Shown one piece after another: positions 10,281 through 27,718 of a stretch of DNA of 56,565 nucleotides. Location of the stretch: contig JAFXFG010000003.1 of NCBI GenBank assembly GCA_017520675.1, forward strand, positions 1 to 56,565, written 5' to 3'. A program made the translations under genes and the position numbers. The notes beneath the pieces are model-generated. The model was given only the letters and a program-made list of their open reading frames with translations, searched no databases and had not been told where the DNA came from. Position 1 is the first letter of the stretch. Each line of letters begins with the position of its first letter. This DNA is from Alphaproteobacteria bacterium. GTDB taxonomy: Bacteria > Pseudomonadota > Alphaproteobacteria > Rs-D84.

Positions 10281-10306
10281 AAAGCTGCCGTAGGGCAGTT
10301 TTTTGT
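10281..10306 (+). terminator. intrinsic terminator
   Basis: aaagctgcc gtag ggcagtttttt. Confidence 0.7.
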
Positions 10307-10358
10307 TTGCTTTTTTTATTTTTGTATGTATTATGTTTCGGCAAAAAAAGGATTGATA

Positions 10359-10736
10359 ATGAATGTTATTGTTGAGTATGTAAAAGATTTGACATCTGCA
10401 TTGCTTCCTGTTCACAAGAGAAATGCGACATCTAAAGATGCGGATTTGTTGGTTGAAATGGCGCTGGATATGCAATATATTGTTGCAAAAAATGGTGTAA
10501 CATATTGGTATTATTTTGTTGATGAGATGTTTTTGAGTGATGCAAGAAATTTATTGCGTCAGAATGGTTTAAAACCAAGATTTCATAATAGTAAATTCTA
10601 TATGGGGGGTGTGCCAGTGTTGCGAATTCGTAAGTCAAATTTAGAAAAAGATATAGAGGCTAAGAATTTTGTTGCTTCTTTGATGCAAAAGAGAAAAATG
10701 AGTGATGATACAATGAGTTCTTTAAGACAAAGATAA
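10359..10736 (+). CDS. hypothetical cytoplasmic protein (125 aa)
   Basis: ATG at 10359 preceded by aaaggat. No signal peptide and no recognisable motif. Confidence 0.5.
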   Translation: MNVIVEYVKDLTSALLPVHKRNATSKDADLLVEMALDMQYIVAKNGVTYWYYFVDEMFLSDARNLLRQNGLKPRFHNSKFYMGGVPVLRIRKSNLEKDIEAKNFVASLMQKRKMSDDTMSSLRQR

Positions 10737-10740
10737 AAAA

Positions 10741-10770
10741 TAAGTCGCTGATGGGCGACTTATTTTTTTT
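10741..10770. terminator. bidirectional hairpin between convergent genes
   Basis: aagtcgc tgatgg gcgactt flanked by an A-run and a T-run. Confidence 0.6.
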
Positions 10771-11485
10771 ATTCTGAAAAATATTTTGATTTTTGTGTTT
10801 TTGAATTTGTGTACATTTCGTTAAATAATCTTTCGGCCGCTTTTTTTGTGGTTGGTGCGCCATTGGTTGGTGTGTTATAGTCAGCACCGTTTAGAACAAT
10901 TAAACGCGTGGGTAACAATGCGTTGCCACATTCTATGTAGTATTGATTGGCGTCATAGTATTTTCCATAGCAATTACCGTTTTCGACGGCTGCAAAATTA
11001 TTACGTGCCAGCGATTGGCATGTTGGTTGTGCGCCATAAGTAATTTCACCGTTTTCAAGTGTTTCATCGGGATTGTCCAATATTCCTGGACACCATACAT
11101 TTACAAGTTGACCATTTACAGATACCTTGGTACCATCGTTTGATGTTTTGCGTGTTCCAAAACAATCGCGATTACTGGATAAGTTATTGATGTCATAGTC
11201 TGTTTTGATTTTTTTTCCTTGCTCGATTTCTTTGCGTTTTAATGCAACGGGTTCGCGAGCATCTGTGATTAATGCTTCTGGGCAGATTAGTTTTAGTCCC
11301 CAACAATTGCTGGTGTCGTCCCATGACTCTATGTTTCCCATTTCTATTAGGTAACCATATGTCATATTAGGATAGCAATTGGTTGGGTTTATTTTGCATA
11401 CTGTGGGACGCAGCCACCATGGTATAGTGGCGGCGGTTGCAGGGATTATGTTCATAATTAATATAAGATAAAATATTTTTTTCAT
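10769..11485 (-). CDS. secreted Cys-containing protein (238 aa)
   Basis: Signal peptide MKKIFYLILIMNIIPATAA. 10 Cys in the mature part. Confidence 0.65.
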   Translation of the reverse strand: MKKIFYLILIMNIIPATAATIPWWLRPTVCKINPTNCYPNMTYGYLIEMGNIESWDDTSNCWGLKLICPEALITDAREPVALKRKEIEQGKKIKTDYDINNLSSNRDCFGTRKTSNDGTKVSVNGQLVNVWCPGILDNPDETLENGEITYGAQPTCQSLARNNFAAVENGNCYGKYYDANQYYIECGNALLPTRLIVLNGADYNTPTNGAPTTKKAAERLFNEMYTNSKTQKSKYFSE

Positions 11486-11548
11486 TTCCTGTCCTGTTTA
11501 GTTGTTGTTTATAATTCTATCATAAAAAAACATTTGAAGCAATAATGG

Positions 11549-13585
11549 TTATTTTGTAATGCAAATTCCCCATTTTTCGTGTGCTGGTGTTTGTGAATAG
11601 AATTTCATATTCTTTTCTGGTTCTTTTTTGGGGTTGTTGTCGTATTGAATCCATTGGCCGTCATGCTTTTCACATTCTGCGTTTAGTACATTGTATAGTT
11701 GTGTGCGCACCTGTGCTATTACTGTGTTTATGTCTTGGATTACAGATGGACTTAGCCCTTTGGTCGATTCTGATGGGCGGATGCAGGTTTCAAGCGCGTA
11801 TTGTGCGAATTTTTGGTATAGACTGCCGTTGTAATCAGAACAATTTGCGGTGTCTGTTGTGTAATCTGGCAGAACTGCACAAATTTCATTGCCAGGGGCA
11901 TAGGTGCGACATTCAAGTGGATATGTGTGTGCAACATTAAAGCTGTATGGACTGCATAATGTTTTTGCAAATTTTTCAAGTGATGCACGACAGTTGTTGG
12001 CGATTTGTTCGCTAACAATGTTGTGCATGGCGGTTACTAGTTCTTGTAGGCCGTTTGAGCCACCACCATATAAATTGCTGCATGCGTTTAATTTTTCCTG
12101 GCACATTGTTTCAGATAATTCTAGTCGCATACCGATTATATTTTGAACTTCTAGGTCTGAGAATTCTAGGAGTCGATTGTTTTCGTCTTCGTAGCAAGAA
12201 ACAACAGTAGCAAGGCATTCGTTCTTTACTTGGCGAATACGTTTTTGTTGTTCCTGGTGTATTTCTGTTATGGCTTGCCTTAAAAATTCGTCCCATATGT
12301 CTTGTGATAAATCACGACATGTGTTAAGACTATTTTGAGCGAATATTTTTTTGTCGTTTAATCGTGATACTAATAGGTTATTTGCGTTATTTGTTAATAT
12401 GTCGCCATCTAATGATGTCGCGTTGGAAAATTCATAAAAGTCGGCTGTGTATATTGGTTCGCCAGTTTGATAATTTAGGTATTTGCCTGTTAAATCAAGA
12501 CAATGAATATAATCTGGACCGCATGCTGTTTCGGCAGTTAAATCTTGGCGAATTAGAGATAGGCAGTCATTGATGCTAGAAGAATTGTGTGCGTTGTAGT
12601 TTTCAAGTCTGGCATTATCTAGGTCGTATTCTGTTTGTCTGATTTGTGAATTGGCAGATTTTAATTTTGAATCAAGATTGCTTATTAATAGCGAACAATC
12701 GTTTTCGATATACATGCTGTAAGCGGCAGTTACCATTTGTTTGGTCGTTTGGTTTGGACAACTGTCGGAAACCATTTCAAGACATTGGGCGTTTACAGTG
12801 TTGTAAAGTGTTTCGCCTGTTAAATCAGATATGTTTGTCCCGCCAATTAATTCAGATGTGTTCCATGATATGTTTATGTTCGATGAAAAATCAGCAGGAC
12901 TGGTTGGTGTAGATTGACGCTTAGACAGTATTTTATTGATGGAATTTAATGTCGATGCACTTTCTGAATTGTCGGTGATGTTTTCTTGGGCAAATTCACC
13001 TGCCGAGGCGGTTACCATAGCTGTTGCTTCGGCGGCGGTTTTGTCAACTGCGTAAATATTAAATGTTTTGAAATCTTGCAATTGTTCTGATGTTTGGGTA
13101 AGAGCGCGCTCTCTGGATTGAAGTTCGTATAGTTTTGATGAACATATACATCTGCGATATGTGTCATTTGCATTGCTGCAGAATTGGTCCATACAGGTAA
13201 AATATGCTTCGCGACAGGCGTTGTAATCTGTATTGAATGTGCTGGACGCGGGTGTGGTTAGTGTTGTGGCGGCACGTGATGTTCTTTGTATAATTGATGC
13301 GGCGGTTTGTTTGCGTGGAACGATAGTATTAGCTGTTTGTGGACGCGCTGAAATGCCACGACTGGATTGTCTGATTGTGTTGTTGGGGGCGGGGCGTGTA
13401 ATCGGTTGTGATTGTGTAGATTTAGGTATTGCGATGCGCGCGGAGGTTTTGTTCGTAGGTTCGTGCGGTTGGCGCGATAATGTGTTATGTGTTGGACGCT
13501 TGGGAGAATTTATATCACGAACAGCGGCATTGGATATTCCAATCCCGCAAGTCAATGCAATGATAAGAAAAAAAATCTTTCTCAT
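11549..13585 (-). CDS. large secreted Cys-rich protein, distant paralog of 14048..16255 and 16277..18814
   Basis: Start moved to ATG 13585 (MRKIFFLIIALTCGIGISNA). The TTG start in the track lies inside the predicted -35 box. Motif CREAYFTCMDQFCSNANDTYRRCICSS. Confidence 0.75.
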   Translation of the reverse strand: MRKIFFLIIALTCGIGISNAAVRDINSPKRPTHNTLSRQPHEPTNKTSARIAIPKSTQSQPITRPAPNNTIRQSSRGISARPQTANTIVPRKQTAASIIQRTSRAATTLTTPASSTFNTDYNACREAYFTCMDQFCSNANDTYRRCICSSKLYELQSRERALTQTSEQLQDFKTFNIYAVDKTAAEATAMVTASAGEFAQENITDNSESASTLNSINKILSKRQSTPTSPADFSSNINISWNTSELIGGTNISDLTGETLYNTVNAQCLEMVSDSCPNQTTKQMVTAAYSMYIENDCSLLISNLDSKLKSANSQIRQTEYDLDNARLENYNAHNSSSINDCLSLIRQDLTAETACGPDYIHCLDLTGKYLNYQTGEPIYTADFYEFSNATSLDGDILTNNANNLLVSRLNDKKIFAQNSLNTCRDLSQDIWDEFLRQAITEIHQEQQKRIRQVKNECLATVVSCYEDENNRLLEFSDLEVQNIIGMRLELSETMCQEKLNACSNLYGGGSNGLQELVTAMHNIVSEQIANNCRASLEKFAKTLCSPYSFNVAHTYPLECRTYAPGNEICAVLPDYTTDTANCSDYNGSLYQKFAQYALETCIRPSESTKGLSPSVIQDINTVIAQVRTQLYNVLNAECEKHDGQWIQYDNNPKKEPEKNMKFYSQTPAHEKWGICITK

Positions 13586-13601
13586 TCCTGTTTGTCTTTG
13601 T

Positions 13602-13630
13602 ATTTTATCAAAATATTTATACATAGACAA
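13602..13630 (-). promoter_or_regulatory. sigma-70-like promoter TTGTCT-17-TAAAAT
   Basis: Reverse complement of 13625-13630 and of 13602-13607, with a 17-nt spacer. Confidence 0.4.
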
Positions 13631-13631
13631 G

Positions 13632-13670
13632 AAAAGAAAAAATAAAAACGCAAATCAATTAATTTGCGTT
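13632..13670 (-). terminator. infA intrinsic terminator
   Basis: aacgcaaat / atttgcgtt stem (13647-13655 / 13662-13670), followed on the minus strand by a U-rich run. Confidence 0.6.
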
Positions 13671-13904
13671 CTCAATCGGTGTGTGGTTGCGTTCGACAAA
13701 TGTTATGCGACCTTTGTTTAGGTCGTATGGTGTCATTTCAACACGAACCCGTTCGCCAACATTTACCCATATGTGTGCCTTGCGCATTTTACCACATACA
13801 GTTGCTAATATTTCGTGTCCGTTCTCAAGTTTTACACGAAACATTGTATTTGGCAACTTGTCTTCAACTGTACCAGTGAAAACAATTACATCGTCTTTGG
13901 CCAT
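13659..13904 (-). CDS. infA: translation initiation factor IF-1
   Basis: [42 protein letters not shown]...[18 protein letters not shown]. Confidence 0.93.
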
Positions 13905-13945
13905 AAATTTTCCTTTTTAGTCTTAAACTGTTTTATATGAGCCTT

Positions 13946-13974
13946 ATTTTATTGTTTCAGTGGGATAATTGCAA
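13946..13974 (-). promoter_or_regulatory. candidate infA promoter TTGCAA-17-TAAAAT
   Basis: Palindromic TTGCAA at 13969-13974. Reverse complement of 13946-13951 is TAAAAT. Confidence 0.45.
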
Positions 13975-13989
13975 GTTTTTTTTATCTGC

Positions 13990-14018
13990 TTGCTAATGTA
14001 TGATTTTTTTGATAAAAT
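13990..14018 (+). promoter_or_regulatory. candidate promoter TTGCTA-17-TAAAAT for the Cys-rich tandem genes
   Basis: TTGCTA at 13990-13995 and TAAAAT at 14013-14018. Confidence 0.45.
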
Positions 14019-14047
14019 TACTCGTAAATGAAAGTAGGATGGTTTAT

Positions 14048-16255
14048 ATGAATTTAAAAACTTTTGCTTTGTTATTGGCTATTTTTCCTTTGATTGCAAA
14101 TGCAGCAGCACGTAGTGATGCAGCACGTGTGGGGATGCAACGTGCAGGTGGTGCGGGTGTAAGGGCGCCAACGATGGTCAAGAACTTGAAGACGTCTTCT
14201 GGTAAGAAGTCGGTCCAGAAATCAACAAATAGTGTACAAAAGGCAGAAGAGGATGTTGAGGAATATGAAGAAGATTTTGTCGATGAGTATGAAGATATTG
14301 CCGCAGAAGACGAATTCGTTGAAGAAGAATTTGTAGAAGAAGAGGAAGTTGTAAAATCGACACCTAAAAATGGTAATTGTCGTGAGGCATATCGTCAATG
14401 TATGGATGAATTTTGCTTGTTAGATGAATCGGAAGGGTATAGATGTGCGTGTTCTTCTAATATAAATAAATCGAAGTCTTTGATTCAAGAAATACAAAAA
14501 ATACAGGAAGAAGCGGATAAATTGTACACCGAAGGTGTTGAGCGTGAGCAATTGGGGGCCAAAGCCAGACTTGTCTTTGGTGAAAGTGAAGCTGCACAAA
14601 AAAGTTCAAGGGCATCGGGTCTTAGTTTTTCTGAATGGTTGAATAGCGGTACAGATGAGGAAGAAGAATTAGATGCTGATGATATGATTGGCGATGGGTT
14701 GTATGGTATGGCGGCGGAATTTTGTGCCGCTGAATTAGAGGCCTGTGGCGCAAAGGCAGAAATGGAGGAGATGCTGTATACGCGACAGATAACAGCAGAT
14801 TGTAAATCGTTTAGTTCGTATTTGGCAGAACAAAAGGTGAACGCACAGGCGAATAAGCGTACCGCAGAGGCGGCAGTGCGTCAGGCACGTTTGGCAATGC
14901 TGGATACAACAAATAAGTACAATCGTGGTGAGTGCCTGTTAGCATATCGTGCGTGTATTGCAGATAAGGGGGGCTGTGGTTCAAATTTTGAAAATTGTTT
15001 GGATGCAGATTTGTTGGGACGTCGTGCAAATGCCTGTGAAAATGTTCTGGATCAGTGTATGTCTGTCAGAAATATGGTGCTGGAGGATTGGGAAGCCGAA
15101 TCAGAAGCGATATTAGTCGATGCAGCGAAATATGCAGACAAATATCGTCGTCAGACTTGTTTTGCGCAGGTGCAGCTTTGTTTAGAAGATGGTTGTTCAA
15201 CAGGGACAAATCCAGCCTGTTTGACAAATGTTAATGTTGCAGCGGGTGTCTGTCCAATAATCAATGAGTGTAATGATATTATCCCAGGATTTAAAGATAG
15301 TGTTAATGATAAATTAGGATTCTTGCGCACTCAGTTTTGTCAGAATGATATAGATTCTTGTCTGCGTGATAAGTGTGGTGAAAACTTTACAGCGCCAGAA
15401 TGTGTTGGTAAAAGAGTCGATGAAATTGTTGCCTTGTGTCCACAAGATATGTTCCCGTCTTGTAAGAACGAAACACAGTTTGATATAATTGTGTCTGCGG
15501 CAGTCCTGCAGATGGATTATCAAATGATGCAAGGCTGTATTAATTATTTTAGTGATCAATTGGGTAAGGTTTGTGGTACGGACATGGCATGTTTGCCATC
15601 TGATGATTTGGTAGCTTCGTTGACTGAGGTTCCTGAAACAACCGAAGAATTACAAAAATTGCGTATGACGGTTGTTGATAATTCTAAGGCAGCGGTTGCA
15701 GATTTCTTTAAGGATTTTGAGGCGGATAAAACAGTGGCGGCCTGTCAGGATGCGGAAAAGCCAGAGGGAAGAGCTAGCCTGGGACAAAATATATTTAATT
15801 CAGCAAAGATTATTGCTGAAATAAGCGCAGAAAATAGAGCGTTACGTGATTTAGAAACGAAAATTGCGGAATTGTCTAGAAAACAAGACCTGAAGAAGGC
15901 AGAGGAAAATTGTTATAATACCTATAAGGTTGAGACACCAGATAGTGACGCAGAAAATAAAAATTATTCTTATATACGTAGTGTTTCGTTTGAACCAAGT
16001 CTGCGTAATTGTCATGTATGTCGTATGCAGCAGGTTTGTGAAAAAGGTGGCGAAACCAAAGGTAGTGCCGCATTAAAGGCGGCCGCTGGGGGCCTGTCGG
16101 CAGGTGCATCAGCCGGAACAATGGTTAGTCCTGGTTGGGGAACTGCAATTGGTGGTATAGTTGGTGCAGTTGGTGCAGGTATAATGGGCGCAAGTGCAGC
16201 AGGTGAACAAGAATTCTGTCAACAAATTGAATCTTGTGAAGATATCAATATGTAG
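14048..16255 (+). CDS. large secreted Cys-rich protein with acidic tract and C-terminal glycine-zipper segment
   Basis: Start at ATG 14048 (RBS aggatgg) gives MNLKTFALLLAIFPLIANA. Motifs CREAYRQCMDEFC and YTRQITADCKSF. C-terminus GGIVGAVGAGIMGASAAG...CEDINM. Confidence 0.8.
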   Translation: MNLKTFALLLAIFPLIANAAARSDAARVGMQRAGGAGVRAPTMVKNLKTSSGKKSVQKSTNSVQKAEEDVEEYEEDFVDEYEDIAAEDEFVEEEFVEEEEVVKSTPKNGNCREAYRQCMDEFCLLDESEGYRCACSSNINKSKSLIQEIQKIQEEADKLYTEGVEREQLGAKARLVFGESEAAQKSSRASGLSFSEWLNSGTDEEEELDADDMIGDGLYGMAAEFCAAELEACGAKAEMEEMLYTRQITADCKSFSSYLAEQKVNAQANKRTAEAAVRQARLAMLDTTNKYNRGECLLAYRACIADKGGCGSNFENCLDADLLGRRANACENVLDQCMSVRNMVLEDWEAESEAILVDAAKYADKYRRQTCFAQVQLCLEDGCSTGTNPACLTNVNVAAGVCPIINECNDIIPGFKDSVNDKLGFLRTQFCQNDIDSCLRDKCGENFTAPECVGKRVDEIVALCPQDMFPSCKNETQFDIIVSAAVLQMDYQMMQGCINYFSDQLGKVCGTDMACLPSDDLVASLTEVPETTEELQKLRMTVVDNSKAAVADFFKDFEADKTVAACQDAEKPEGRASLGQNIFNSAKIIAEISAENRALRDLETKIAELSRKQDLKKAEENCYNTYKVETPDSDAENKNYSYIRSVSFEPSLRNCHVCRMQQVCEKGGETKGSAALKAAAGGLSAGASAGTMVSPGWGTAIGGIVGAVGAGIMGASAAGEQEFCQQIESCEDINM

Positions 16256-16276
16256 TTAGCTGGAGGAGAGAGAAGT

Positions 16277-18814
16277 ATGAAAAAAAGTTTTATTTTGTTT
16301 TTGTCTTTGATTGTTGCGGTTGTGCCTGATGCATTCGGGGCGGTCAAAAAAACATCTAAGCAGTCCGCAATTCAAAGTGGTACTTCGGTGCGTTCTAAAA
16401 CACAGGCCAAGGGATTGTATGACCAGGAATGTTATGACCTGTATTATGGTTGTATGGATCAATTTTGTATTTCTGATAATGAAAATGGTGGCAGTTGTGC
16501 GTGCAGTGATTTGAGTATCGAATATGAAAAACAATTCTCGGAAATTCAGTCCATATTTGCAGAGGCAGAGCGTATAGCATCAGAAGAAGTGGAAAAGGTT
16601 AAGCTGGGGGCACAGGCTGATATCGTCTTTACTGGGAAACGTGAATATGACGAAGATGGTAATTTGGTCGATGTTGATAATATTGGAAAAAATGATAAAA
16701 AGTCAGCGCGTGCAGATTTGTTGTCTTTGTGGGATGAAGAAACAGATGAGGAAGTTTTTGAAGATGGTACGGATTTTTCTGATTTAGTTGGTGATGCTTT
16801 GTACAGATCAGCAGAAGAACTTTGTTTAGAGCAAATTCCAGAAAGTTGTGAAGGTGATTTGCCTTTGATTCAAAAAATGTATACTCGTCAAATCACATCT
16901 GATTGTAAGGCGTTTGAAAATAGTATTGCAAAGAAAAAGAAGGAAGCCGATAATGCATTGGTAAGTGCGAATTCAGATGTACGCAAGGCCTTAAAAGAAA
17001 GTTTTGAAGAGTCTAATAAATTTGATTTGGGACAGTGTATGATTGAGTTTAAAAAATGTATGTTGACTCAGGATGCATGTGGAGAAAATTGGGAAAATTG
17101 TGTTTCAATTGTTGCATCTGAAAATATGCAAAATAATGAAACTGTTAGTACAGCAGGGACAAAGGTTGAATCGGTGGAAACCTTTGATATTACTGCATCT
17201 ACGATGGATGTGTTGAATTCAAAACGTATGATTTGTGAAAATGTTTTGGGTAAATGTATGGCTGTGCGTGATATGGTTTGGCCTGCGTTCTTGAAAGAGG
17301 CAGCACCAACAATTCGCTTGGCAGAATCACAGGCAGAATCAAAATTCCGTCAATCTTGTTTAACAACGATTTCAAATTGTATTCATACGGCTTGTAAAGA
17401 TGATATTGCAGGCAAGGGTGTAGATACTATGGATGCTTGCTTGTCAAGACCTGATATGGCACGTAGTTTCTGTAAGGTTGAAATTGATCCTTGCGAACGT
17501 ATGGAGCCTTTGATTTGGGGATATGTTGTAGATAAGTTGGCTGCAATGCGTGTTGATGCATGTACACAAGAAGTAAAGGATTGCTTTACTGCAGATACAC
17601 GTTGTGGCGAGAATTTCCAAAATTGTATTGGTATGGATTACGACTATATTCATGATATTTGCCCAATCGATAGTTTGGTTGTGTGTAAGGCAAATAATCC
17701 AGACTTTAAAATGGATGATTTGGATTCTATGTTAATGGGGCTGTACTTAAATATTGATAATGCCGCACTTGATCAATGTCAGGAATTGGTTGATAAAAAA
17801 ATGACCGAGGTTTGTGGCAGTACAACTGATTGTAATCGCTTTGCGGCGGATGATACGATTGGTGGTGGCAGTGTGCGTACACAAAAAGATGGTGCGAAAT
17901 ATCGTGTAACAGGTATGATTTCGTTTGGCTCAATTAAAATGGGTGATGCGTCAGGACGGACCAAGGACGAGGGTGCAGATGATGTCAATGTTTTGGGGCC
18001 AGGTGAAATTGGTGTTCAGGAGTATATTGCACAAATTCGTGAAAAAAATGCAGATGTTCCAGATGCTGATGCCATAATCGCGACAATTGAAGAGGAATTA
18101 AATAATATCGCAGGTACTATTAATCGTACAATTGAATTGATTGAACAAGACCCTGAGATTCAATTCTGTGTCAGTGGACGTGATTTATCGCAAATTACTG
18201 GTGATAAAGGTGCAAAGACATCTGCGCGTTTCCCGAACTTGTTAAATCAGGTGAAAATGCAGATTGCTGTATCTGCATTACGCAAGGCACAGGATAATTA
18301 TAACAAAAAGTATAATGAGGCAGTAGCAGAAGCAATGCGAGATTCCGAAGTTGATATTGCGCAGTATATGTGTCAGATGTTGCCAACAAACAATGGTGCA
18401 ACTTATGGTTTGTCATCTGGTACAGGTGAGGTTTTATCTGTTCCCTATGCGATTAGCTATGAGGTGGGCGCCGGAATAAATGAAAAAATGTTGGCGTCTG
18501 GGGGGCGTGGTAGTTCATCTACTACGTCTGATGCGCGAATTGATACAACTGGGGGATCTGCCGAATTTGGAGACATTGTAGATTCGTTTACTGGTTTAGG
18601 TCGTAATAGGGTTAAAACTAATTTAGGTAGCGGTACACGCGAAATGTGGTCTACGTTTAATCGTGAAACCCGTATATGCCATTTCTGTACGTCGACGATT
18701 ACAAAAAATTGTAAGTCAGTAAATCACAAAGGGTTCTTGGGTATTGGCTCAAAGAATGATTTAGAGTGTACAGAATCAAAGCCAGTTGAAAAGTGTGAAG
18801 ATATTCCAATGTAA
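16277..18814 (+). CDS. large secreted Cys-rich protein, clear paralog of 14048..16255
   Basis: RBS ggaggag. Signal peptide MKKSFILFLSLIVAVVPDAFG. Motifs CYDLYYGCMDQFC, YTRQITSDCKAF and CENVLGKCMAVRDMV. Ends CEDIPM. Confidence 0.85.
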   Translation: MKKSFILFLSLIVAVVPDAFGAVKKTSKQSAIQSGTSVRSKTQAKGLYDQECYDLYYGCMDQFCISDNENGGSCACSDLSIEYEKQFSEIQSIFAEAERIASEEVEKVKLGAQADIVFTGKREYDEDGNLVDVDNIGKNDKKSARADLLSLWDEETDEEVFEDGTDFSDLVGDALYRSAEELCLEQIPESCEGDLPLIQKMYTRQITSDCKAFENSIAKKKKEADNALVSANSDVRKALKESFEESNKFDLGQCMIEFKKCMLTQDACGENWENCVSIVASENMQNNETVSTAGTKVESVETFDITASTMDVLNSKRMICENVLGKCMAVRDMVWPAFLKEAAPTIRLAESQAESKFRQSCLTTISNCIHTACKDDIAGKGVDTMDACLSRPDMARSFCKVEIDPCERMEPLIWGYVVDKLAAMRVDACTQEVKDCFTADTRCGENFQNCIGMDYDYIHDICPIDSLVVCKANNPDFKMDDLDSMLMGLYLNIDNAALDQCQELVDKKMTEVCGSTTDCNRFAADDTIGGGSVRTQKDGAKYRVTGMISFGSIKMGDASGRTKDEGADDVNVLGPGEIGVQEYIAQIREKNADVPDADAIIATIEEELNNIAGTINRTIELIEQDPEIQFCVSGRDLSQITGDKGAKTSARFPNLLNQVKMQIAVSALRKAQDNYNKKYNEAVAEAMRDSEVDIAQYMCQMLPTNNGATYGLSSGTGEVLSVPYAISYEVGAGINEKMLASGGRGSSSTTSDARIDTTGGSAEFGDIVDSFTGLGRNRVKTNLGSGTREMWSTFNRETRICHFCTSTITKNCKSVNHKGFLGIGSKNDLECTESKPVEKCEDIPM

Positions 18815-18819
18815 AGAAT

Positions 18820-18840
18820 AGGCCCCGAAAGGGGCTTTTA
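18820..18840 (+). terminator. intrinsic terminator
   Basis: aggcccc gaaa ggggcttt. Confidence 0.7.
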
Positions 18841-18866
18841 AATCAGTAAAATAGGAGATGTTTCTT

Positions 18867-19712
18867 ATGAATGTTTCTGAAAAATTAGAAATAGAAGTTA
18901 GTTCCTTGGAGGCTATTTTTTCTTCCTTGGGCGAAAAGGCTGTCGCGTTTGGTTTAAAGTTGATTGCGGCAGTGGCAATTTTAATTTTTGGAATTTGGCT
19001 ATCAAACAGATTGATGCGTTCATTGCGAAAATTAATGGAACGCAAAAAGTTTGATGCTTCGTTGTCGTCTTTCTTGTTATCCTTTTTGAATATTGCATTC
19101 AAGGTGTTTGTTGTTGTTATTTGTTTAACGACAGTTGGTGTTCAGATGACCTCTATTGTGGCTGTTTTAGGTGCGGCTTCGTTGGCAATAGGTATGGCAT
19201 TGTCGGGAACATTACAGAACTTTGCGGGTGGAATTGTCTTGTTGGTCTTTAAACCGTTCAAGGTCGGTGATGCCATTGAAACGCAAAGTGGGAAATCGGG
19301 AACCGTAAAGAAGATAATGATTTTTACAACTGAATTGCATACATTTGATAATAAGGTTATTTTCTTGCCGAATGGCGCATTGGCAAATGGTGAAATTACT
19401 AATTTGTCACAGGCAAAGAATCGCAGGTCTGATATAAAAATAACTGTTTCGTATGGCGATGATATTGCATTAGTGCGCAGGGTTGTTTTGGGAATTTTAG
19501 ACAAGGATACGCGTGTCTTGAAAAATCCAGAACCACTGGTTTTTATTAATTCTTTGGCGGAAAAAGGAGTCGAGATTATTGTTCGCTATTGGGCAGATTA
19601 TGGTGATGTTTATGACACTAATATCGAATTAATCGAAGAAATTTATAAGGCATTGCCAAAGAAAAAAATAAGTTTCTCTTTTCCACAAATGGATGTTAGA
19701 TTGGTGAAATGA
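18867..19712 (+). CDS. mscS: small-conductance mechanosensitive channel (MscS family)
   Basis: Three N-terminal TM helices and the GGIVLLVFKPFKVGDAIE motif. The second ATG has better RBS spacing (aggag + 9 nt). Confidence 0.8.
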   Translation: MNVSEKLEIEVSSLEAIFSSLGEKAVAFGLKLIAAVAILIFGIWLSNRLMRSLRKLMERKKFDASLSSFLLSFLNIAFKVFVVVICLTTVGVQMTSIVAVLGAASLAIGMALSGTLQNFAGGIVLLVFKPFKVGDAIETQSGKSGTVKKIMIFTTELHTFDNKVIFLPNGALANGEITNLSQAKNRRSDIKITVSYGDDIALVRRVVLGILDKDTRVLKNPEPLVFINSLAEKGVEIIVRYWADYGDVYDTNIELIEEIYKALPKKKISFSFPQMDVRLVK

Positions 19713-19722
19713 GTTAAAAAAA

Positions 19723-19751
19723 ATACCCCAAGATTAAACGTCTTGGGGTAT
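19723..19751. terminator. bidirectional terminator between mscS and fabF
   Basis: ataccccaaga ttaaacg tcttggggtat flanked by A- and T-runs. Confidence 0.75.
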
Positions 19752-19755
19752 TTTT

Positions 19756-21006
19756 TTAATTTACCTTTTTTAGAACAAGGCTGGCATTTGTGCCACCAAA
19801 ACCAAATGAATTGCTTAACGCGACATCGACTTTGCGTTTCTTGGCAGTGTGTGGAACAAGGTCTGTGTCGCCAACTGCGTCTTCTGGGTCATCCAGATTT
19901 ATTGTTGGTGGAACAATTCCATCGCGGATTGATAGGGCGCAGAATATAGCCTCAATCGCACCGGCTGCACCCAGTAAATGTCCAGTCATTGACTTTGTAG
20001 AGGACATAGATATTGGATTGCCTGCAAATAATGTTTGAACAGCAGCCAATTCGCCAACATCGCCAAGGCCCGTTGATGTACCATGCGCATTGATGTAATC
20101 AATATTTTCTGGTAAAAGTTTTGCATCGTTTAATGCCGCCTGCATTGCGCGCATCCCGCCCGCACCATTTGGGGCAGGGGCAGTAATGTGGTATGCATCA
20201 CCAGACATACCATAGCCTGCAACCTCAGCATAAATTTTTGCACCACGTGCAATTGCGTGTTCGTATTCTTCAAGGACCAGGATACCTGCACCTTCGGCCA
20301 TAATAAATCCATCGCGGTTTTTGTCCCATGGACGTGATGCGCGTTCGGGTTCGTCATTGCGAGTGCTTAGTGCCTTCATGGCGGAAAAACCAGCAAGACC
20401 GATACGGCCAACTGCACCTTCGGTGCCGCCGCAAATCATAATGTCTGCATCGCCATATTTGATAAGACGGGTGGCTTCGCCAATTGAATGGGCGCCAGTC
20501 GCGCAGGCTGTAACGGTTGATATGTTCGGGCCACCAAAACCATATTTAATTGATACATGACCAGCAGTCATATTAATGATTCCCTTTGGGATGAAGAAAG
20601 GACTAACACGACGTGGGCCACCATCATGTAATTCAATACAGTTTTCATATATTGTGTTCAGACCGCCAATCCCACTGCCAATTGATACACCAATACGGTT
20701 TTTATCACCTGTGTAATCAATCAAACCTGCGTCGCGAATTGCTTCGTCTGCGGCAACCATACCGTACATGATTGATTTGTCCATCTTGCGTTGTTCGCGT
20801 GGTTCGATAACACTGTCTGGATTATATTCCCCAGCACCTGTGCCATGTGTTGGAATGCCCGCAATTTGTGATGCGATGTCGGATACTTCAAATGAATCAA
20901 TCTTGCGAATACCGGATTTGCCAGCTAATATATTTTGCCATGCGTATTCAATACCTGTGCCAACTGGTGATACGATTCCCATACCAGTTATAACGACTCT
21001 TTTCAT
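19756..21006 (-). CDS. fabF: 3-oxoacyl-ACP synthase II
   Basis: MKRVVITGMGIVSPVG...ACATGAHSIG...HGTSTGLGD...SNSFGFGGTNASLV. Confidence 0.95.
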   Translation of the reverse strand: MKRVVITGMGIVSPVGTGIEYAWQNILAGKSGIRKIDSFEVSDIASQIAGIPTHGTGAGEYNPDSVIEPREQRKMDKSIMYGMVAADEAIRDAGLIDYTGDKNRIGVSIGSGIGGLNTIYENCIELHDGGPRRVSPFFIPKGIINMTAGHVSIKYGFGGPNISTVTACATGAHSIGEATRLIKYGDADIMICGGTEGAVGRIGLAGFSAMKALSTRNDEPERASRPWDKNRDGFIMAEGAGILVLEEYEHAIARGAKIYAEVAGYGMSGDAYHITAPAPNGAGGMRAMQAALNDAKLLPENIDYINAHGTSTGLGDVGELAAVQTLFAGNPISMSSTKSMTGHLLGAAGAIEAIFCALSIRDGIVPPTINLDDPEDAVGDTDLVPHTAKKRKVDVALSNSFGFGGTNASLVLKKVN

Positions 21007-21072
21007 ATTTTATATTCCTTTGACTAGGTTAATGTACACATATAATATATGTTTTTTTGTATAAAATACAGT

Positions 21073-21105
21073 AAAAAAATCCGCTGGGACATTTTGTCGC
21101 CAGCG
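21073..21105 (-). terminator. acpP intrinsic terminator
   Basis: Minus strand reads cgctggcgac aaaat gtcccagcg followed by a U-run. Confidence 0.6.
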
Positions 21106-21134
21106 AATTATATCGTTTCTAAGATACAAATCGA

Positions 21135-21371
21135 TTAGTTCTTTTTATGTTCGTCGATGTATTTTACTGCATCGCCAACTTTTTCAAGTTTTGCAGCAGC
21201 ATCATCTGGAATTGTGATGTCAAATTCTTTTTCAACTTCCATAACAAATTCAACAACGTCCAAAGAGTCTGCGCCCAAGTCGTTTACAAATGCGGCTGTT
21301 TCAGTAACTTTTTCTTCTGGAACACCCAATTTTTCTGCTACGATTTTTTTTACTTTTTCAAAAGTTGTCAT
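21135..21371 (-). CDS. acpP: acyl carrier protein
   Basis: 78 aa with the [19 protein letters not shown] phosphopantetheine site. Confidence 0.95.
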
Positions 21372-21492
21372 TTTTTTTCCTTTGTTTTTGTTAATCTATT
21401 TGGTCCATACCATGACCGTCATTAAGCAATAAGCTATCATTTTATCGTGTTGGTGTCAAGGAATTATAACAAATAATAACATTTGTTGCTTG

Positions 21493-22506
21493 TTATAGTG
21501 CGGATTCTGTATATAACAAATCATCAAGTAAGTTGTTAAGGTTTGACCTGAAATCTTCGCGATCAGACGCCCAGACAACGCGACGCATTAAAAATTTATG
21601 CACATCATCCATTGTTAAATTTGGAATTCCTGCATTGGTTGCAATACGGCGCCATGTAGTGCGTGGGTCTGATAAATGTATTCCGCCGCGACCAGGAAAT
21701 ACCCATTGGCCATCTTGGGGCAGGTCTTGTAATAATAATATCGCCCTGTCTGTTAATGGACGGTCGTTCCATAAGTCGTGATTAAAGTCTAAATCCTGCC
21801 ACGACATTGAAAATATTTTGGAACGTGGGGCGAACCCGTATATCAGCATAAAAAATGCAGCACGTAATATCGGGTCTGTGATGGCATCAATTGCGTGAAT
21901 CAGACGTTGTAGGCCAGATTTGTTCAGTGGGCGAATCCGGCGCTTTTGTGGTATCTTTTCTAGTGTAAGAACAGGGTTGGTTTTGGTGTATCCTGTTTCA
22001 ATTGCATAGTTAAATATGCTTTGTAGTAATTCTTGTACGCGGCCTGCGATTGCGTTGCCGGAAATTTTTTTTATCGTGTTGTCGATATCGTTTGTTGTTA
22101 TTGATGATATCGGCATAGAGAACAATCCAGATAAATGGCGGTTTATTGTGCGGACTAGTTTTGTATATGAATCTTCGCTGCGACGCACTTTGTTTGATAG
22201 GTATAATTTTAGGAAGTCAGAAAATGTGATTTTTTTACGACGAATTGGTGGTTTTTTTGTTGCATTTTCAAGAATGTCAGGGACAGCACTGCGGGCATCT
22301 TCGATGTCGATTGTGGGATAGTTGCCAATTAAAATTCGTTTGTCTTTGCCATGAACGCGTTTGCGTACAAAAAAAGTTTTGATGCCACGACTGGTTATGT
22401 ACATTCTTAGTCTGGGTTCTGATATGTCTTGGACAACATCAAAACCCTTGGACGGGGCAGGTAGATTGTCCAGAATATATGGGTTAAAATAAAACTGATG
22501 TGCCAT
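21493..22506 (-). CDS. tyrosine-recombinase/phage-integrase-like protein, short and possibly degenerate
   Basis: The N-terminus matches the P4-type integrase arm-binding pattern (LPAPSKGFDVVQDISEPRLRMYITSRGIKTFFVRKRVHGK). The C-terminal domain is short (337 aa in total) and lacks a clear H-x-x-R...Y signature. Confidence 0.6.
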   Translation of the reverse strand: MAHQFYFNPYILDNLPAPSKGFDVVQDISEPRLRMYITSRGIKTFFVRKRVHGKDKRILIGNYPTIDIEDARSAVPDILENATKKPPIRRKKITFSDFLKLYLSNKVRRSEDSYTKLVRTINRHLSGLFSMPISSITTNDIDNTIKKISGNAIAGRVQELLQSIFNYAIETGYTKTNPVLTLEKIPQKRRIRPLNKSGLQRLIHAIDAITDPILRAAFFMLIYGFAPRSKIFSMSWQDLDFNHDLWNDRPLTDRAILLLQDLPQDGQWVFPGRGGIHLSDPRTTWRRIATNAGIPNLTMDDVHKFLMRRVVWASDREDFRSNLNNLLDDLLYTESAL

Positions 22507-22524
22507 GTGTGGCCCCTTTTTTTA

Positions 22525-24318
22525 TTATGAAACCTTTAATGCGTTGATAAATGCAGATTGTGGAATTTCTACATTTCCAAAAGAACGCATACGTTTTTTT
22601 CCTTCTTTTTGTTTTTCAAGAAGTTTGCGTTTGCGTGTGATGTCGCCACCATAGCATTTAGCAGTAACATCTTTGCGGTACGCAGCAATTGTTTCGCGGG
22701 CAATTATCTTGCCACCAATTGCGGCTTGTAATGGAATTTTGAACTGATGACGCGGTATCAGGTCTTTTAGTTTTTCAACAATCTGGCGACCGCGTTTTTC
22801 AGCAAAAGAACGGTGGCACATAAATGATAGTGGTTCGACGTTCTCTTCGTTTACAAGAATGTTTACCTTGACCAAATCAGATGCCTGATAGCCATATACA
22901 ACATAGTCAAATGATGCATAACCCGATGAAATCGATTTTACGCGATCGTAAAAATCAAATACAATTTCTGCCAGTGGTAGTTGATAGACCAAGACTGCGC
23001 GATTGCCAACATAGGATATGTTTTCTTGGATACCGCGTCGTTCTGCGCACAGCGACATAATGCCACCCATATATTTATCAGGCATCATAATTGTCGCGCG
23101 TACCCATGGTTCTTCGATAGATGCGATTTTTGTAGCCTCTGGCATATCGGCAGGATTTTCAAGGTCAATTACTTCACCATTGCGCAGGTGAATCTTGTAT
23201 AGCACACTGGGGACTGTGTTTATTAGGTTCAGATTAAATTCGCGGGACAGACGTTCGCTGATAATTTCCATATGTAATAATCCTAAGAAACCGCAACGCA
23301 AGCCAAAGCCCAATGCAGATGATTTTTCAACTGTAAATGTAAATGATGCGTCGTTCAAAGCCAGTTTTTCTGCGCTTTCGCGAAATGTAGGATAATCGTC
23401 AGCCTCGACCGGAAAAAATGAGGAGAATACAACCGGTACAGACGGCTTGAACCCAGATAGGGCAGGTGTGTCGGGGGTACGGGCATCTGTGATTGTGTCG
23501 CCGACCTTGCAATCGTGGATTGTTTTCATTCCTGTAATAATAAAGCCGATTTCACCAGTGTGTAATTTGTCGGTATTAATCATCTTTGGTGTAAAATACC
23601 CAATCTTGTCAACGGTATATTCTGCACCTGTTGCAATAAATTTAATTTTTTGACCGCGTGATAATTCGCCGTCAACAATGCGTACCAGTATTACAACCCC
23701 CAGATATGAATCATACCAAGAATCAACCAGTAATGCGCGTGTGGGGGCATTTTCATCCCCATGTGGTGCCGGTAATTTAGTAACGATTTCTTCTAGTAAT
23801 TCTGGAACACCATCACCAGTCTTGCCAGAAACCGCCAGTGCTTCGTTTGCATCCAGACCGATAACGTCTGCGATTTGTTCACGTGTGGCGGTAACATCAC
23901 TGGATGGTAAATCAATCTTGTTTAACACAGGCAACATTTCAAGGTCGTTATCCAGCGCAAGATATGCGTTCGCCAGTGTTTGCGCCTGAACCCCTTGGGT
24001 GGCGTCAACCAGAACCAGTGCACCTTCACATGCCGCAAGTGAGCGTGATACTTCGTATGAAAAATCAACATGCCCAGGCGTGTCCATCAGGTTTAATTGA
24101 TATGTTTCGCCATTTTTTGCCTTGTAGGTCAGGCGAACTGTTTGGGCCTTAATTGTGATGCCACGTTCGCGTTCAATGTCCATAGAGTCAAGGACCTGGG
24201 CCTTCATTTCACGTGATTGCAGACCACCAGTATATTCGATAAGTCTGTCTGATAATGTAGATTTGCCATGATCAATATGGGCGACAATAGAAAAATTTCT
24301 GATATTTGATTGTTTCAT
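22525..24318 (-). CDS. lepA: translation elongation factor 4 (LepA)
   Basis: [21 protein letters not shown]...DTPGHVDF...NKIDLP. Confidence 0.95.
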
Positions 24319-24346
24319 ACTAAAAACACCTATGTTATGCGACTTA

Positions 24347-24375
24347 TACTAGTATACTATTGCCGCATTAGCAAG
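24347..24375 (-). promoter_or_regulatory. candidate lepA promoter TTGCTA-17-TAGTAT
   Basis: Reverse complement of 24370-24375 and of 24347-24352. Confidence 0.4.
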
Positions 24376-24398
24376 GTGAATTTTTTATGATTTATTCT

Positions 24399-24746
24399 TT
24401 ATAAATTATTTAGTAATTCATCAATTCGGGCGGCTTTTTCCAGTGTGTCATCATATGCAAACTTAATGTCTGGAACGTATTTTTGATTCATACGGGACGC
24501 CAATTCGAATCGGACAGTGCGTGTGATTTCGTCTAGTTTTCTTTGTACTGTGTCAATGTTATCGTTGCGGGTATAATAAAACAGGCGCACAAATTGTAAT
24601 CCCCCATGTGCGACACTGCCAACCAAAGACACACCGCTGATTATAGGGTCGTCGTTATAGTTGTCGCGCAGAATTTCTGCGACAAGTGTTTGAACTTTGC
24701 TGGCGATTCGTTCGCCACGATTAGAATTAAAATGTTTCTTTTGCAT
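24399..24746 (-). CDS. rbfA: ribosome-binding factor A
   Basis: 115 aa, RGERIASKVQTLVAEILRD...DPIISGVSLVGSV. Matches the RbfA size and pattern. Confidence 0.6.
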   Translation of the reverse strand: MQKKHFNSNRGERIASKVQTLVAEILRDNYNDDPIISGVSLVGSVAHGGLQFVRLFYYTRNDNIDTVQRKLDEITRTVRFELASRMNQKYVPDIKFAYDDTLEKAARIDELLNNL

Positions 24747-24832
24747 CTGGTTTATTTTCTTTATTATTGTTATTATGATTGTAAAATATAAAATATTAAA
24801 TTACAATCAAGTAAAATTTAATAGGTGTAGGA

Positions 24833-25408: not shown

Positions 25409-25429
25409 TAGTTTTAGGTGATGTAAATA

Positions 25430-26446: not shown

Positions 26447-26512
26447 AAAATCGTCAGTTGTTTATTTTTGATAATTATTAAAAAATATAACGAATTATAA
26501 CAAATTAAATAA

Positions 26513-26536
26513 GCGCCCAGAAATTAGGGCGTTTTA
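26513..26536 (+). terminator. intrinsic terminator
   Basis: gcgccc agaaatta gggcgtttt. Confidence 0.65.
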
Positions 26537-26700
26537 TGAATGTTTGTTTGTATAAATCGAATCGAAAGCGATATATAAAATATCATATTTTTGATGAAAA
26601 TGCAAAAATCTTTGTCCTTGCGAATAGGTTTTTATGCCTGATAAAATAATAGTAACTAGACATTAATCTAGTCAAATTAACCTGAACGAAAGGATATATT

Positions 26701-27468: not shown

Positions 27469-27473
27469 AAAAT

Positions 27474-27577: not shown

Positions 27578-27587
27578 TGTGGTGCGT

Positions 27588-27680: not shown

Positions 27681-27690
27681 AAAAATCTGA

Positions 27691-27718
27691 TTGCAAAAGT
27701 TCTTAATTTCGGTATAAT
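27691..27718 (+). promoter_or_regulatory. sigma-70-like promoter TTGCAA-16-TATAAT
   Basis: TTGCAA at 27691-27696 and TATAAT at 27713-27718. Confidence 0.55.

Follow-up and report, generated by a model that had tools for sequence, protein, structure and literature searches.

Three neighbouring genes on a 56,565-nucleotide stretch of DNA (the window) from Candidatus Enterousia (order Rs-D84), a gut alphaproteobacterium that has not been cultured, are real genes under selection, and at the level of sequence and structure prediction it holds that their protein family is conserved yet matches no known family and no structure in PDB or BFVD. We propose, with a probability of roughly 45%, that their products (A, B and C) are Sec-exported helical rods, stapled by disulfides, that would act as structural components of the envelope, A being anchored and B soluble. 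The genes are located as follows (coordinates are those of the window, strand in brackets).

14048..16255 (+): gene A, first of the A-B pair; 735 aa, exported, 36 Cys, mature pI 4.5
16277..18814 (+): gene B; 845 aa, exported, 36 Cys, mature pI 4.6
11549..13585 (-): gene C, a divergent third paralog; 678 aa, 25 Cys, across infA from A-B, syntenic

Re-reading of the sequence gave the same two ORFs for A and B, 21 nt apart, as a preliminary description of this DNA. The frame 14000..16255 (+) is open, and the ATG at 14048, from which the N-terminus reads MNLKTFALLLAIFPLIANA and then AARSD, is preceded by an AGGA Shine-Dalgarno sequence. Gene B is preceded by GGAGG 8-12 nt upstream of its start and begins with MKKSFILFLSLIVAVVPDAFG followed by AVKK. 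Both N-termini, read from the translations, are of the signal peptidase I substrate type without a lipobox, and the Sec signal peptides described earlier were seen in both. The short spacer, which implies co-transcription of A and B, and the strong Shine-Dalgarno sequence of gene B are signs of an operon. Rfam and tRNA scans of the whole window detected no regulatory RNA and no tRNA.

13990..14018 (+): between the divergent genes infA and A, a promoter-like site ahead of A, TTGCTA-17-TAAAAT with TG (consensus scan only)
14048..14104 (+): signal peptide of A, MNLKTFALLLAIFPLIANA, with an A-N-A cleavage motif and no lipobox (read from the translation)
16263..16270 (+): Shine-Dalgarno sequence of gene B, GGAGGAGA

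The paralogy of A and B that had been claimed was evident from BLASTP (30% identity over 483 aa, E=8e-57, far above chance), and all four strings of the collinear Cys motifs described beforehand occur in both proteins in the same order. C was matched to A by BLASTP (E=4e-13). All three proteins are matched by the family HMM, the signature of which is an N-terminal C-x6-C-M-D-x-F-C ... C-x-C plus about 32 conserved Cys columns; the E-values were 1.1e-179 for A, 3.5e-272 for B and 2.7e-50 for C, the last over HMM positions 8-461, which is the N-terminal two thirds only. The tail of the C-terminal beta domain, C-x-D-[IV]-x-[MF]-COOH, is found in A (CEDINM) and B (CEDIPM) and not in C, which ends in ...WGICITK. 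The ending C-E/D-D-[IV]-x-M is shared by about 230 of 240 close homologs, and a polar-[IVLTYF]-x-[MFYW] terminus was present in 51 of 149 diverse representatives. An acidic low-complexity insert, also reported before, was located at residues 67-101 of A. It is variable in length and composition in A orthologs (6-21 D/E per best 30-aa window) and absent from B orthologs, which makes it a linker rather than a conserved motif.

14246..14350 (+): acidic low-complexity spacer of A, EEDVEEYEEDFVDEYEDIAAEDEFVEEEFVEEEEV, residues 67-101
14378..14416 (+): N-terminal family signature of A, CREAYRQCMDEFC, followed by CxC; columns at least 90% conserved family-wide
16235..16252 (+): conserved C-terminal tail of A, CEDINM-COOH (tail pattern in homologs)

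The family comprises 905 clusters at 50% identity, with more than 1364 homologs of B, and the named homologs are all annotated 'hypothetical protein'. No match to Pfam, NCBIfam or PHROGs was obtained for A, B or C. With a cut-off of E<=0.1, Pfam returned 0 families for A and B, and at E<=0.01 a set of 51 diverse members gave three single-member chance matches only. Two family profiles compared to PDB sequences gave only chance coiled-coil matches (E>=0.016). The preliminary description had called the family unrecognised, which agrees with the lack of a match in Pfam, NCBIfam, PHROGs, PDB and BFVD; the profile and Foldseek comparisons that it had proposed as checks matched no characterised family (PDB, BFVD, Pfam). 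The literature found on Enterousia and Rs-D84 consists of genome descriptions, in which the A/B/C proteins are not mentioned.

Enterousia is widespread in the guts of humans, livestock, birds and insects and has a genome of less than 1 Mb; both its lifestyle and its genome size have been described (PMC12306168). Respiratory chains are reportedly absent from the lineage, standard nutrient transporters are missing, and genes for rod shape and peptidoglycan are retained (PMC12306168). Many membrane and secreted proteins of the organism are unexplained, and it is presumed to live as an obligate symbiont or parasite that depends on other cells for metabolites (PMC12306168). Relatives of the A/B/C family were detected in 333 species-level genomes; the best 80 of the 333 are all Enterousia-type MAGs, among them a circular genome of 958,618 bp. 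Together, A, B and C account for ~6.8 kb of DNA, or roughly 0.7% of a chromosome of 0.96 Mb.

Synteny of the block C-infA-A-B extends over ~80 species, whose hosts include humans, ruminants, horses and birds. The order p238-C-infA-A-B is kept in nearly all loci compared, and all three family members are present in 64 of 82 loci. Pfam and NCBIfam scans identified infA, mscS, fabF, lepA and ribosomal genes as neighbours; among the adjoining genes of assigned function (infA, mscS, fabF) none links A/B/C to the envelope. A plasmid or phage origin found no support in tblastn searches of 72,556 plasmids and of phages, which gave no match.

Orthologs of A were compared at 75 loci (51-88% identity), of B at 80 loci (60-87%) and of C at 67 loci (43-67%), with dN/dS values of 0.05-0.10, 0.07-0.10 and 0.17, respectively. 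The median ortholog identity of A (68%) and B (66%) exceeds that of the housekeeping channel MscS (59%), which favours a conserved core role over a fast-evolving antigen. Kept at the same place in every species and under strong purifying selection, A/B/C must do something central; this selection is also an indirect argument that they are expressed.

This conservation speaks against the alternative that A/B/C are surface adhesins or host- or partner-contact proteins, which would cross the outer membrane, be displayed or released, and bind a partner cell or the epithelium, with disulfides conferring resistance to gut proteases as in Giardia VSPs. Such proteins would suit a presumed obligate symbiont or parasite that needs the metabolites of others and has many unexplained membrane and secreted proteins (PMC12306168), and the elongated, acidic rods with disordered spacers, like the Cys-rich exported neighbours and the 1245-aa exported ankyrin-repeat protein nearby, are in keeping with it. 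However, host-exposed adhesins usually vary in copy or sequence, whereas A/B/C are single-copy at a fixed syntenic position in ~80 species and evolve slowly (dN/dS 0.05-0.10, conservation above that of MscS); in addition, the C-terminal strands are hydrophilic, and Pfam scans gave no sign of an autotransporter, an usher, a T1SS or a T9SS. We consider a role as adhesins unlikely, though still to be taken seriously. The VSPs are Cys-rich extracellular proteins of a gut parasite in which disulfides provide protease resistance, and their resemblance to A and B is a functional analogy only: VSPs are eukaryotic, CXXC-rich, highly variable and multigene, whereas A and B are conserved, single-copy and built on C-x6-C.

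Structure prediction is consistent with rod-shaped envelope proteins. A first AF2 model, based on a shallow alignment, had a pLDDT of 63.8 and was uninformative in Foldseek; it was replaced by means of a deeper alignment. The model of B then reached a pLDDT of 81.4; it has long helices and, at the C-terminus, a beta sheet of hydrophilic strands, and its domain arrangement is uncertain at a pTM of only 0.50. In this model the long helices of the core span residues 79-119, 195-246, 328-373 and 479-513, and the core holds 29 of the conserved Cys. The beta-domain strands span residues 779-783, 786-795, 800-817, 826-833 and 837-844 (pLDDT about 88-95). A module of four Cys, detected by a regular expression that gave 0 matches in 200 shuffles of all window ORFs, is present in A and occurs twice in B, where the two copies form an internal repeat (hhalign 95.7%, E=8.8e-9).

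14933..14998 (+): 4-Cys module of A, CLLAYRACIADKGGCGSNFENC (regex match)
16424..17851 (+): all-helical Cys-rich core of B, residues 50-525 (AF2, pLDDT mostly 85-95)
17036..17101 (+): 4-Cys module 1 of B, CMIEFKKCMLTQDACGENWENC
17561..17626 (+): 4-Cys module 2 of B, CTQEVKDCFTADTRCGENFQNC
18611..18811 (+): small C-terminal beta-sheet domain of B, residues 779-845; 5 Cys, short GFLGIG loop, tail CEDIPM-COOH
16067..16204 (+): C-terminal G/A-rich hydrophobic hairpin of A, residues 674-719, with a PGWG turn; presumed membrane anchor

Foldseek with the pLDDT-81 model found no match in PDB (none at E<=0.001) or in BFVD; the best values were E=0.52 and E=0.056, respectively, and the long alignments all had TM < 0.12. 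Short matches of the C-terminal sheet to levivirus coats and secretin lips (probability <=0.9, E>1) were non-significant and were rejected. Since the C-terminal strands of B are hydrophilic, they do not form a membrane barrel. An outer-membrane barrel or trimeric-autotransporter-like anchor at the C-terminus was likewise rejected, the strands being hydrophilic and Cys-containing; A, B and the 51 members lack a Pfam barrel domain, and the terminal residue is mostly Met.

On the Kyte-Doolittle scale the signal peptide is the only hydrophobic segment of B; the hairpin of A reaches a 19-residue mean of 1.65 at residue 700. The G/A-rich hairpin is conserved among A-type members, some of which have a frankly hydrophobic helix at this position. 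Isolated C-terminal segments of A-type homologs scored below threshold against Gly-zipper_Omp (E=0.11, 12.9 bits with a cut-off of 25) and YMGG (E=0.11-0.16), and the Pfam likeness to Rick_17kDa_Anti was sub-threshold as well. No A-type segment reached the gathering score of the Glycine-zipper 2TM families (PF05433, PF13488, PF13441), and the window's own A segment had no Gly-zipper match. The hairpin, roughly 45 aa, G/A-rich and with a central PGWG turn, resembles glycine-zipper hairpins of the Gly-zipper_Omp, YMGG and Rick_17kDa_Anti/SlyB type, but it is inserted in the C-terminal beta domain of a 735-aa non-lipoprotein and does not belong to a small N-terminally lipidated protein. Judged from its composition, the hairpin is presumably a glycine-zipper-like membrane element of A, with B as the probable soluble partner.

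A hairpin of this kind could also insert into other cells, and A/B/C would then be secreted or contact-dependent effectors or toxins, for instance membrane-active helical proteins that permeabilise partner cells and so yield nutrients. The hairpin has a sub-threshold likeness to class IIc bacteriocins and C19orf12-type membrane hairpins, and the organism is without standard nutrient transporters (PMC12306168). The hairpin is missing from the B-type proteins, however, and there is no immunity gene, no secretion gene and no mobile context; with rigid synteny beside infA, strongly purifying selection and no match in the Pfam and NCBIfam scans, toxin families included, we regard an effector function as improbable.

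The cysteines provide evidence for stapled rods. The preliminary description had counted about 30 or more per protein; A and B contain exactly 36 each (Cys content 4.3-4.8%), and the spacing C-x6-C-x3-6-C occurs five times in A and six times in B. In alignments of 51-125 sequences with 25-50% identity, Cys makes up almost every invariant or near-invariant column (about 32). Pairs of Cys are lost together with phi=1.00: C804-C840 (50/50), C261-C320 (71/71), C373-C388 (69/69), C436-C462 (6/6) and C361-C406 (6/6), the first of these being two residues of the B beta domain that always disappear jointly. The number of Cys past the first motif is even in 116 of 120 B orthologs, in all 119 A orthologs and in 102 of 113 diverse representatives, a tally that spans 30-46 Cys per protein. 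Pairwise loss and even counts indicate disulfides, and intramolecular bonds fit them better than intermolecular ones. With the signal peptides and the invariant Cys, they lend indirect support to the earlier suggestion that A/B/C are disulfide-rich and extracytoplasmic; A and B would each contain about 18 disulfides.

These observations leave little room for a function of free thiols, in which the Cys would bind or store metal, or act as a redox buffer or sensor, instead of forming structural disulfides. The Cys content as such, the anoxic habitat and the lack of a Dsb gene in the window and 82 loci would be compatible with it. Nevertheless, Cys are lost strictly pairwise and counts are even in the diverse members; the only CxxC is one CH[FV]C, with no CxxCH, no His clustering and no His-rich metal motif; and the i/i+7 spacing of Cys on predicted helices fits helix-helix staples. 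We consider a thiol function very improbable. Dsb, VKOR and thioredoxin genes were not found in the window and the 82 loci (~6% of the genome, and a redundant region besides; oxidoreductase queries were the E. coli sequences of DsbA, DsbB and TrxA), a null result that is uninformative because the 82 loci cover the same small portion of the genome.

A TraN-like mating-pair stabilisation protein or another component of a conjugation or secretion machine is hardly credible, as the preliminary description had already doubted: TraN, the outer-membrane protein of F-type conjugation, is also large and exported with many conserved Cys, but this likeness is superficial, since none of the 51 members, nor A or B, matches Pfam TraN (PF06986), no tra, trb or vir genes occur in the 56 kb window or related loci, tblastn found nothing in 72,556 plasmids, Foldseek found no PDB match at E<=0.001, and the genes are chromosomal core genes adjoining infA. 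With no Pfam match, no conjugation genes and no plasmid context, TraN identity was rejected.

For A/B/C as structural envelope rods, we infer the compartment, the membrane anchoring, the association of A with B and the structural role. After export by Sec and cleavage by signal peptidase I, each protein would fold, in an extracytoplasmic compartment that is oxidising, into an elongated rod, mostly alpha-helical and with about 18 intramolecular disulfides. The rod would include the duplicated 4-Cys module C-x6-C-x6-CG-x-N-[FW]-x-N-C and terminate in a small beta domain that is disulfide-bonded and has the tail C-E-D-[IV]-x-M-COOH. In A-type proteins a loop of the beta domain would be expanded into the glycine-zipper-like hydrophobic hairpin that serves as membrane anchor, whereas B-type proteins keep the short GFLGIG loop and would otherwise be soluble. 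A and B would be co-transcribed and may work jointly. The rods would be stable, protease-resistant parts of the envelope, as a periplasmic or outer-membrane-associated scaffold or coat, in an organism in which most other functions have been lost.

The chlamydial OmcA and OmcB offer an analogy of role: they too are exported, Cys-rich proteins of the envelope in a bacterium that depends obligately on a host and has a reduced genome, and their disulfides are thought to be mechanically stabilising. It is an analogy only. Membership was rejected, as Chlam_OMP3, Chlam_OMP6 and DUF11 were unmatched in Pfam and NCBIfam scans; the fold of A and B is predicted to be mainly alpha-helical, and their paired co-loss and even counts favour intramolecular disulfides over intermolecular cross-links. 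Enterousia also differs in keeping its rod-shape and peptidoglycan genes (PMC12306168). The Sel1-type Hcp proteins of Helicobacter and the twin-CX9C (CHCH) proteins likewise consist of alpha-helical hairpins in which disulfides join Cys on the same helix face, and Hcp, too, comes from a gut-associated bacterium, where it is periplasmic or secreted. In contrast, A and B have C-x6-C spacing, a distinct CG-x-N-[FW]-x-N-C module and no CHCH Pfam match, and the family proteins, at 700-1000 aa, are not built from 36-aa repeats; Sel1/Hcp membership was rejected, since neither A, B and C nor the 51 members match Sel1 (PF08238).

The preliminary description had also stated that one third of the first 19 kb encodes proteins of this kind, counting C and a cluster at 1-5524. 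A, B and C, the last a true member, amount to 6.8 kb or 36%. For the cluster the claim was correct in part, namely for the following gene.

3413..4639 (-): exported Cys-rich protein of 408 aa in which the 4-Cys module occurs twice (regex)

This protein carries C-x6-C-x4-CG-x2-F-x2-C twice, and the profile of its family (at least 934 members in the same lineage, all 'hypothetical') aligned to the A/B profile with an hhalign probability of 88% (E=3e-6, 144 columns). By this profile comparison it is probably a remote homolog of A and B within the same superfamily. The products of 4658..5524 and 1574..3361 are Cys-rich and have signal peptides, but comparison of sequences and with the family HMM detected no homology to A/B, and 4658..5524 was rejected as a family member. 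Many exported proteins rich in Cys are encoded around A-B-C, as is an exported protein of 1245 aa that has true ankyrin repeats.

A wider reading, which we offer as speculative and rather doubtful, is that A/B/C and the remote relative at 3413..4639 constitute a new superfamily with an unseen fold and form the principal envelope or contact apparatus specific to the Rs-D84/Enterousia lineage. If so, the rods would be the structure by which a bacterium of less than 1 Mb, lacking ordinary transporters and biosynthesis, holds on to a partner cell or host and exchanges material with it.

The family combines a confident structural model (pLDDT 81) with the lack of a PDB counterpart, and is a target for structural genomics, for antibodies or FISH-coupled imaging with which the organism's partner might be identified, and as a new entry in Pfam. 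The paired losses amount to a testable disulfide map, and it raises the question how an anaerobe without a respiratory chain would oxidise 18 disulfides per protein. A/B/C are among the best candidates for proteins that may build or stabilise the envelope, or make contact with a partner, in Enterousia.

The genes under study lie in the window as follows.
11549..13585, reverse strand: gene C, 678 aa, third paralog
13990-14018: promoter-like site upstream of A, from a consensus scan
14048..16255, forward strand: gene A, 735 aa
16277..18814, forward strand: gene B, 845 aa

The preliminary description had placed two open reading frames at the positions of A and B, and both were borne out. The frame of A is open from position 14000, with an ATG at 14048 and an AGGA Shine-Dalgarno sequence. 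B starts 21 nt past the stop codon of A and is preceded by a GGAGG Shine-Dalgarno sequence. In translation, the N-terminus of A reads as a classic signal peptide (MNLKTFALLLAIFPLIANA|AA), and that of B is likewise a predicted signal peptide. The four motif strings quoted in the preliminary description are all present and collinear in A and B, and the Cys content, put there at about 30 or more, is exactly 36 in each protein. BLASTP confirmed that A and B are paralogs (30% identity across 483 residues, E=8e-57), and the acidic low-complexity tract was located at residues 67-101 of A.

A, B and C had no matches in Pfam, NCBIfam or PHROGs, and 51 diverse family members had none in Pfam. Two family profiles gave no match among PDB sequences, and tblastn gave none in plasmid and phage collections. 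Structure prediction, which had been named as a check, agreed: an AlphaFold2 model of B, built from an alignment of 80 diverse sequences, had a mean pLDDT of 81.4 (399 residues at 90 or higher), and Foldseek with the whole model found nothing significant in PDB (best E=0.52) or BFVD (best E=0.056). The family is new at the family level, and its fold, as modelled, is probably new too. The initial reading of an unannotated, structurally unmatched family was real and essentially right. With caution, it can be placed in a known general kind, the Cys-rich proteins that host-dependent bacteria export to their envelope.

The layout of B is listed by residue; all lines except the first and the last are from the AlphaFold2 model.
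1-21: signal peptide
to about 45: brief disordered stretch
50-525: core made up entirely of helices, with 29 Cys, many spaced C-x6-C along a single helix
79-119, 195-246, 328-373, 479-513: very long helices in the core
141-163, 289-301: loops modelled at low confidence
534-573: small beta unit
581-701: helical region
705-778: disordered linker rich in G and S
779-844: confident hydrophilic beta sheet of four to five strands, with five Cys
840-845: C-terminal tail, which ends in CEDIPM

The 4-Cys module region at 254-282 recurs within the protein at 429-457 (hhalign 95.7%, E=8.8e-9). The terminus C-[ED]-D-[IV]-x-M-COOH occurs in about 230 of 240 close homologs; in distant members the last residue is commonly hydrophobic or aromatic, and family C-termini split into an A-like and a B-like class. 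Unlike B, A carries ARxDxARVGxQR...RxPN as a conserved N-terminal motif, and the spacer that comes next is variable, acidic or proline-rich. The loop that reads GFLGIG in B is expanded in A into a hydrophobic hairpin of 46 residues (674-719), rich in G and A and turning at PGWG (Kyte-Doolittle 19-residue mean 1.65). C-terminal segments of A-type homologs, searched in isolation, resembled glycine-zipper membrane hairpins only below threshold. At 18822..18835, 8 nt past the stop of B and ahead of mscS, lies a perfect palindrome rich in GC, GCCCCGAAAGGGGC; it was scored terminator-like on the minus strand only and could serve as a terminator or attenuator.

Nearly all columns that were invariant or conserved to 90% or more in alignments at 25-50% identity (about 32 columns) were Cys. 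Among 465 aligned family sequences Cys loss was strictly pairwise (phi=1.00 each, B numbering): C804 and C840 were lost together in 50 sequences and never singly, and co-loss was seen for C261-C320 (71 sequences), C373-C388 (69), C436-C462 (6) and C361-C406 (6). Cys counts, taken from the first conserved Cys onward, ranged from 30 to 46 and were even in 116 of 120 B orthologs, all 119 A orthologs and 102 of 113 diverse representatives. These patterns point indirectly to Cys held in disulfides. We infer about 18 intramolecular disulfides, which would imply folding outside the cytoplasm; with the predicted signal peptides, this is consistent with the disulfide-rich extracytoplasmic character first suggested.

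When the family HMM was searched against every stop-to-stop ORF in the window, exactly three matched: B, A and C. The match of C (E=2.7e-50, over the N-terminal two thirds) agrees with its earlier grouping with A and B. The cluster at 1-5524 had been grouped with them as well, which held in part. The ORF 3413..4639 (-) was not picked up by the HMM; it carries two copies of a 20-22-residue 4-Cys module, C-x6-C-x4-6-CG-x2-[FWY]-x2-C. A has one copy of this pattern and B has two, and shuffling all window ORFs 200 times gave none. Its own-family profile aligned with the A/B profile (hhalign probability 88%, E=3e-6, 144 columns), which makes a remote relationship probable. The Cys-rich exported ORFs 4658..5524 and 1574..3361 had no detectable homology to A/B.

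Cys-rich ORFs at 590..5602 (-) comprise 195 aa (7.2% Cys), 595 aa, 408 aa and 288 aa (6.9% Cys), and ORF 10769..11485 (-) has 238 aa and 9 Cys. All except the 195-aa ORF start with a predicted signal peptide, and none matched Pfam, NCBIfam or PHROGs. The blocks p408-p288-p256-AT1245 and p238-C (p238, p408 and p288 being ORFs named by aa length) are syntenic in other Enterousia genomes, and the exported proteome of the lineage appears unusually Cys-rich.

Homologs were all 'hypothetical protein' or unlabelled entries from Alphaproteobacteria MAGs. When one genome per GTDB species was scanned, relatives turned up in 333 stretches. Phyletic mapping, also proposed beforehand, placed the best 80 of these loci entirely in Candidatus Enterousia or alphaproteobacterial gut MAGs, with one locus on a circular 958,618-bp chromosome. 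The hosts were humans, goats, sheep, deer, yak, horse, chicken, rabbit and others. Enterousia, of the uncultured order Rs-D84, has genomes below 1 Mb, lacks respiration and most biosynthesis and transporters, and is proposed to be an obligate symbiont or parasite (PMC12306168). Exhaustive HMMER searching of 1.84 billion cluster representatives gave 905 family clusters (50% identity) with a cut-off of E<=1e-3, and 727 with one of E<=1e-10; the family is large yet sharply bounded. One distant member, labelled 'Rickettsiales bacterium' (locus L081), is single-copy and lies downstream of rplQ amid other Cys-rich ORFs, four in number. That contig also has a reverse-transcriptase (RVT_1) gene between rpoA and rplQ (7265..8329 (+)) and a PIN-domain gene after the family member.

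Practically every locus keeps the block p238(-) C(-) infA(-), A(+) B(+). Three family members occur in 64 of 82 loci, and one locus has a fourth near rpoA. Median identities to the window were as follows.
infA: 89%
A: 68%
B: 66%
MscS: 59%
C: 48%

Against the three closest genomes, dN/dS (Nei-Gojobori) was 0.05-0.10 for A, 0.07-0.10 for B and 0.17 for C. By these values, A, B and C are functional core genes, neither decaying nor rapidly diversifying. The MscS gene (18858..19712 (+)) and its ortholog in the related locus L002 share 98.6% identity with dS=0.049, against 0.7-0.8 for flanking A, B and FabF in the same pair, which suggests recent recombination or transfer of this short segment. In many loci no MscS gene follows B.

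Between fabF and lepA lies a phage-integrase-like ORF (21493..22506 (-)) with Arm-DNA-binding, SAM-like and central domains and no catalytic-domain match listed; it may be a mobile-element remnant in a <1-Mb genome. ORFs of 255, 424, 277 and 263 aa (26701..30129 (+), 48504..49295 (-)) had no Pfam match at E<=0.01, adding to the high orphan-gene share. Across 1..56565, almost all 2-kb bins show positive GC skew, and cumulative skew climbs steadily. The 56-kb window has no tRNA genes and no Rfam matches, despite containing a ribosomal-protein gene region.

It is well supported that A, B and C form a lineage-specific, strongly conserved, Sec-exported, multi-disulfide, mainly helical family without known relatives. 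The nearest likenesses to known systems, judged by role, are of principle only, and profile searches found no membership in any of these families. Chlamydial OmcA/OmcB are comparable as Cys-rich envelope proteins of a reduced-genome obligate symbiont, Helicobacter Hcp and CHCH-type proteins as disulfide-stapled helical hairpins, glycine-zipper outer-membrane proteins with regard to the A hairpin, and Giardia VSPs in disulfide-based protease resistance in the gut.

As to function, we favour stable structural envelope components, in which the hydrophobic hairpin would anchor A in the membrane and B would be its co-expressed, soluble partner. Slow evolution and single-copy synteny across hosts argue for this role, as do the anchor-like hairpin, the lack of an outer-membrane translocation or secretion signal, and a rod-like, heavily stapled architecture that would suit a protease-rich gut. 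The main rival, displayed adhesins or partner-contact proteins, fits the conservation pattern less well; it suits the presumed Enterousia lifestyle and a nearby exported ankyrin-repeat protein. The latter (6543..10280 (+), 1245 aa) has two genuine ankyrin repeats (residues 28-91) directly after the signal peptide, by phmmer against DARPins (E down to 5e-20; Pfam Ank sub-threshold); the remainder is unannotated, identity across Enterousia loci is 46-73%, and an exported ankyrin-repeat protein is a hint of interaction with eukaryotic cells. An effector or toxin role is less likely, and so is thiol or metal chemistry; motif inspection found no CxxCH motif and no clustered His. A TraN-like role, already doubted in the preliminary description, is effectively excluded.

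Were these proteins the organism's contact apparatus, they would be of considerably greater interest. The lineage that carries the family is widespread in guts and poorly understood, and the family is central there.
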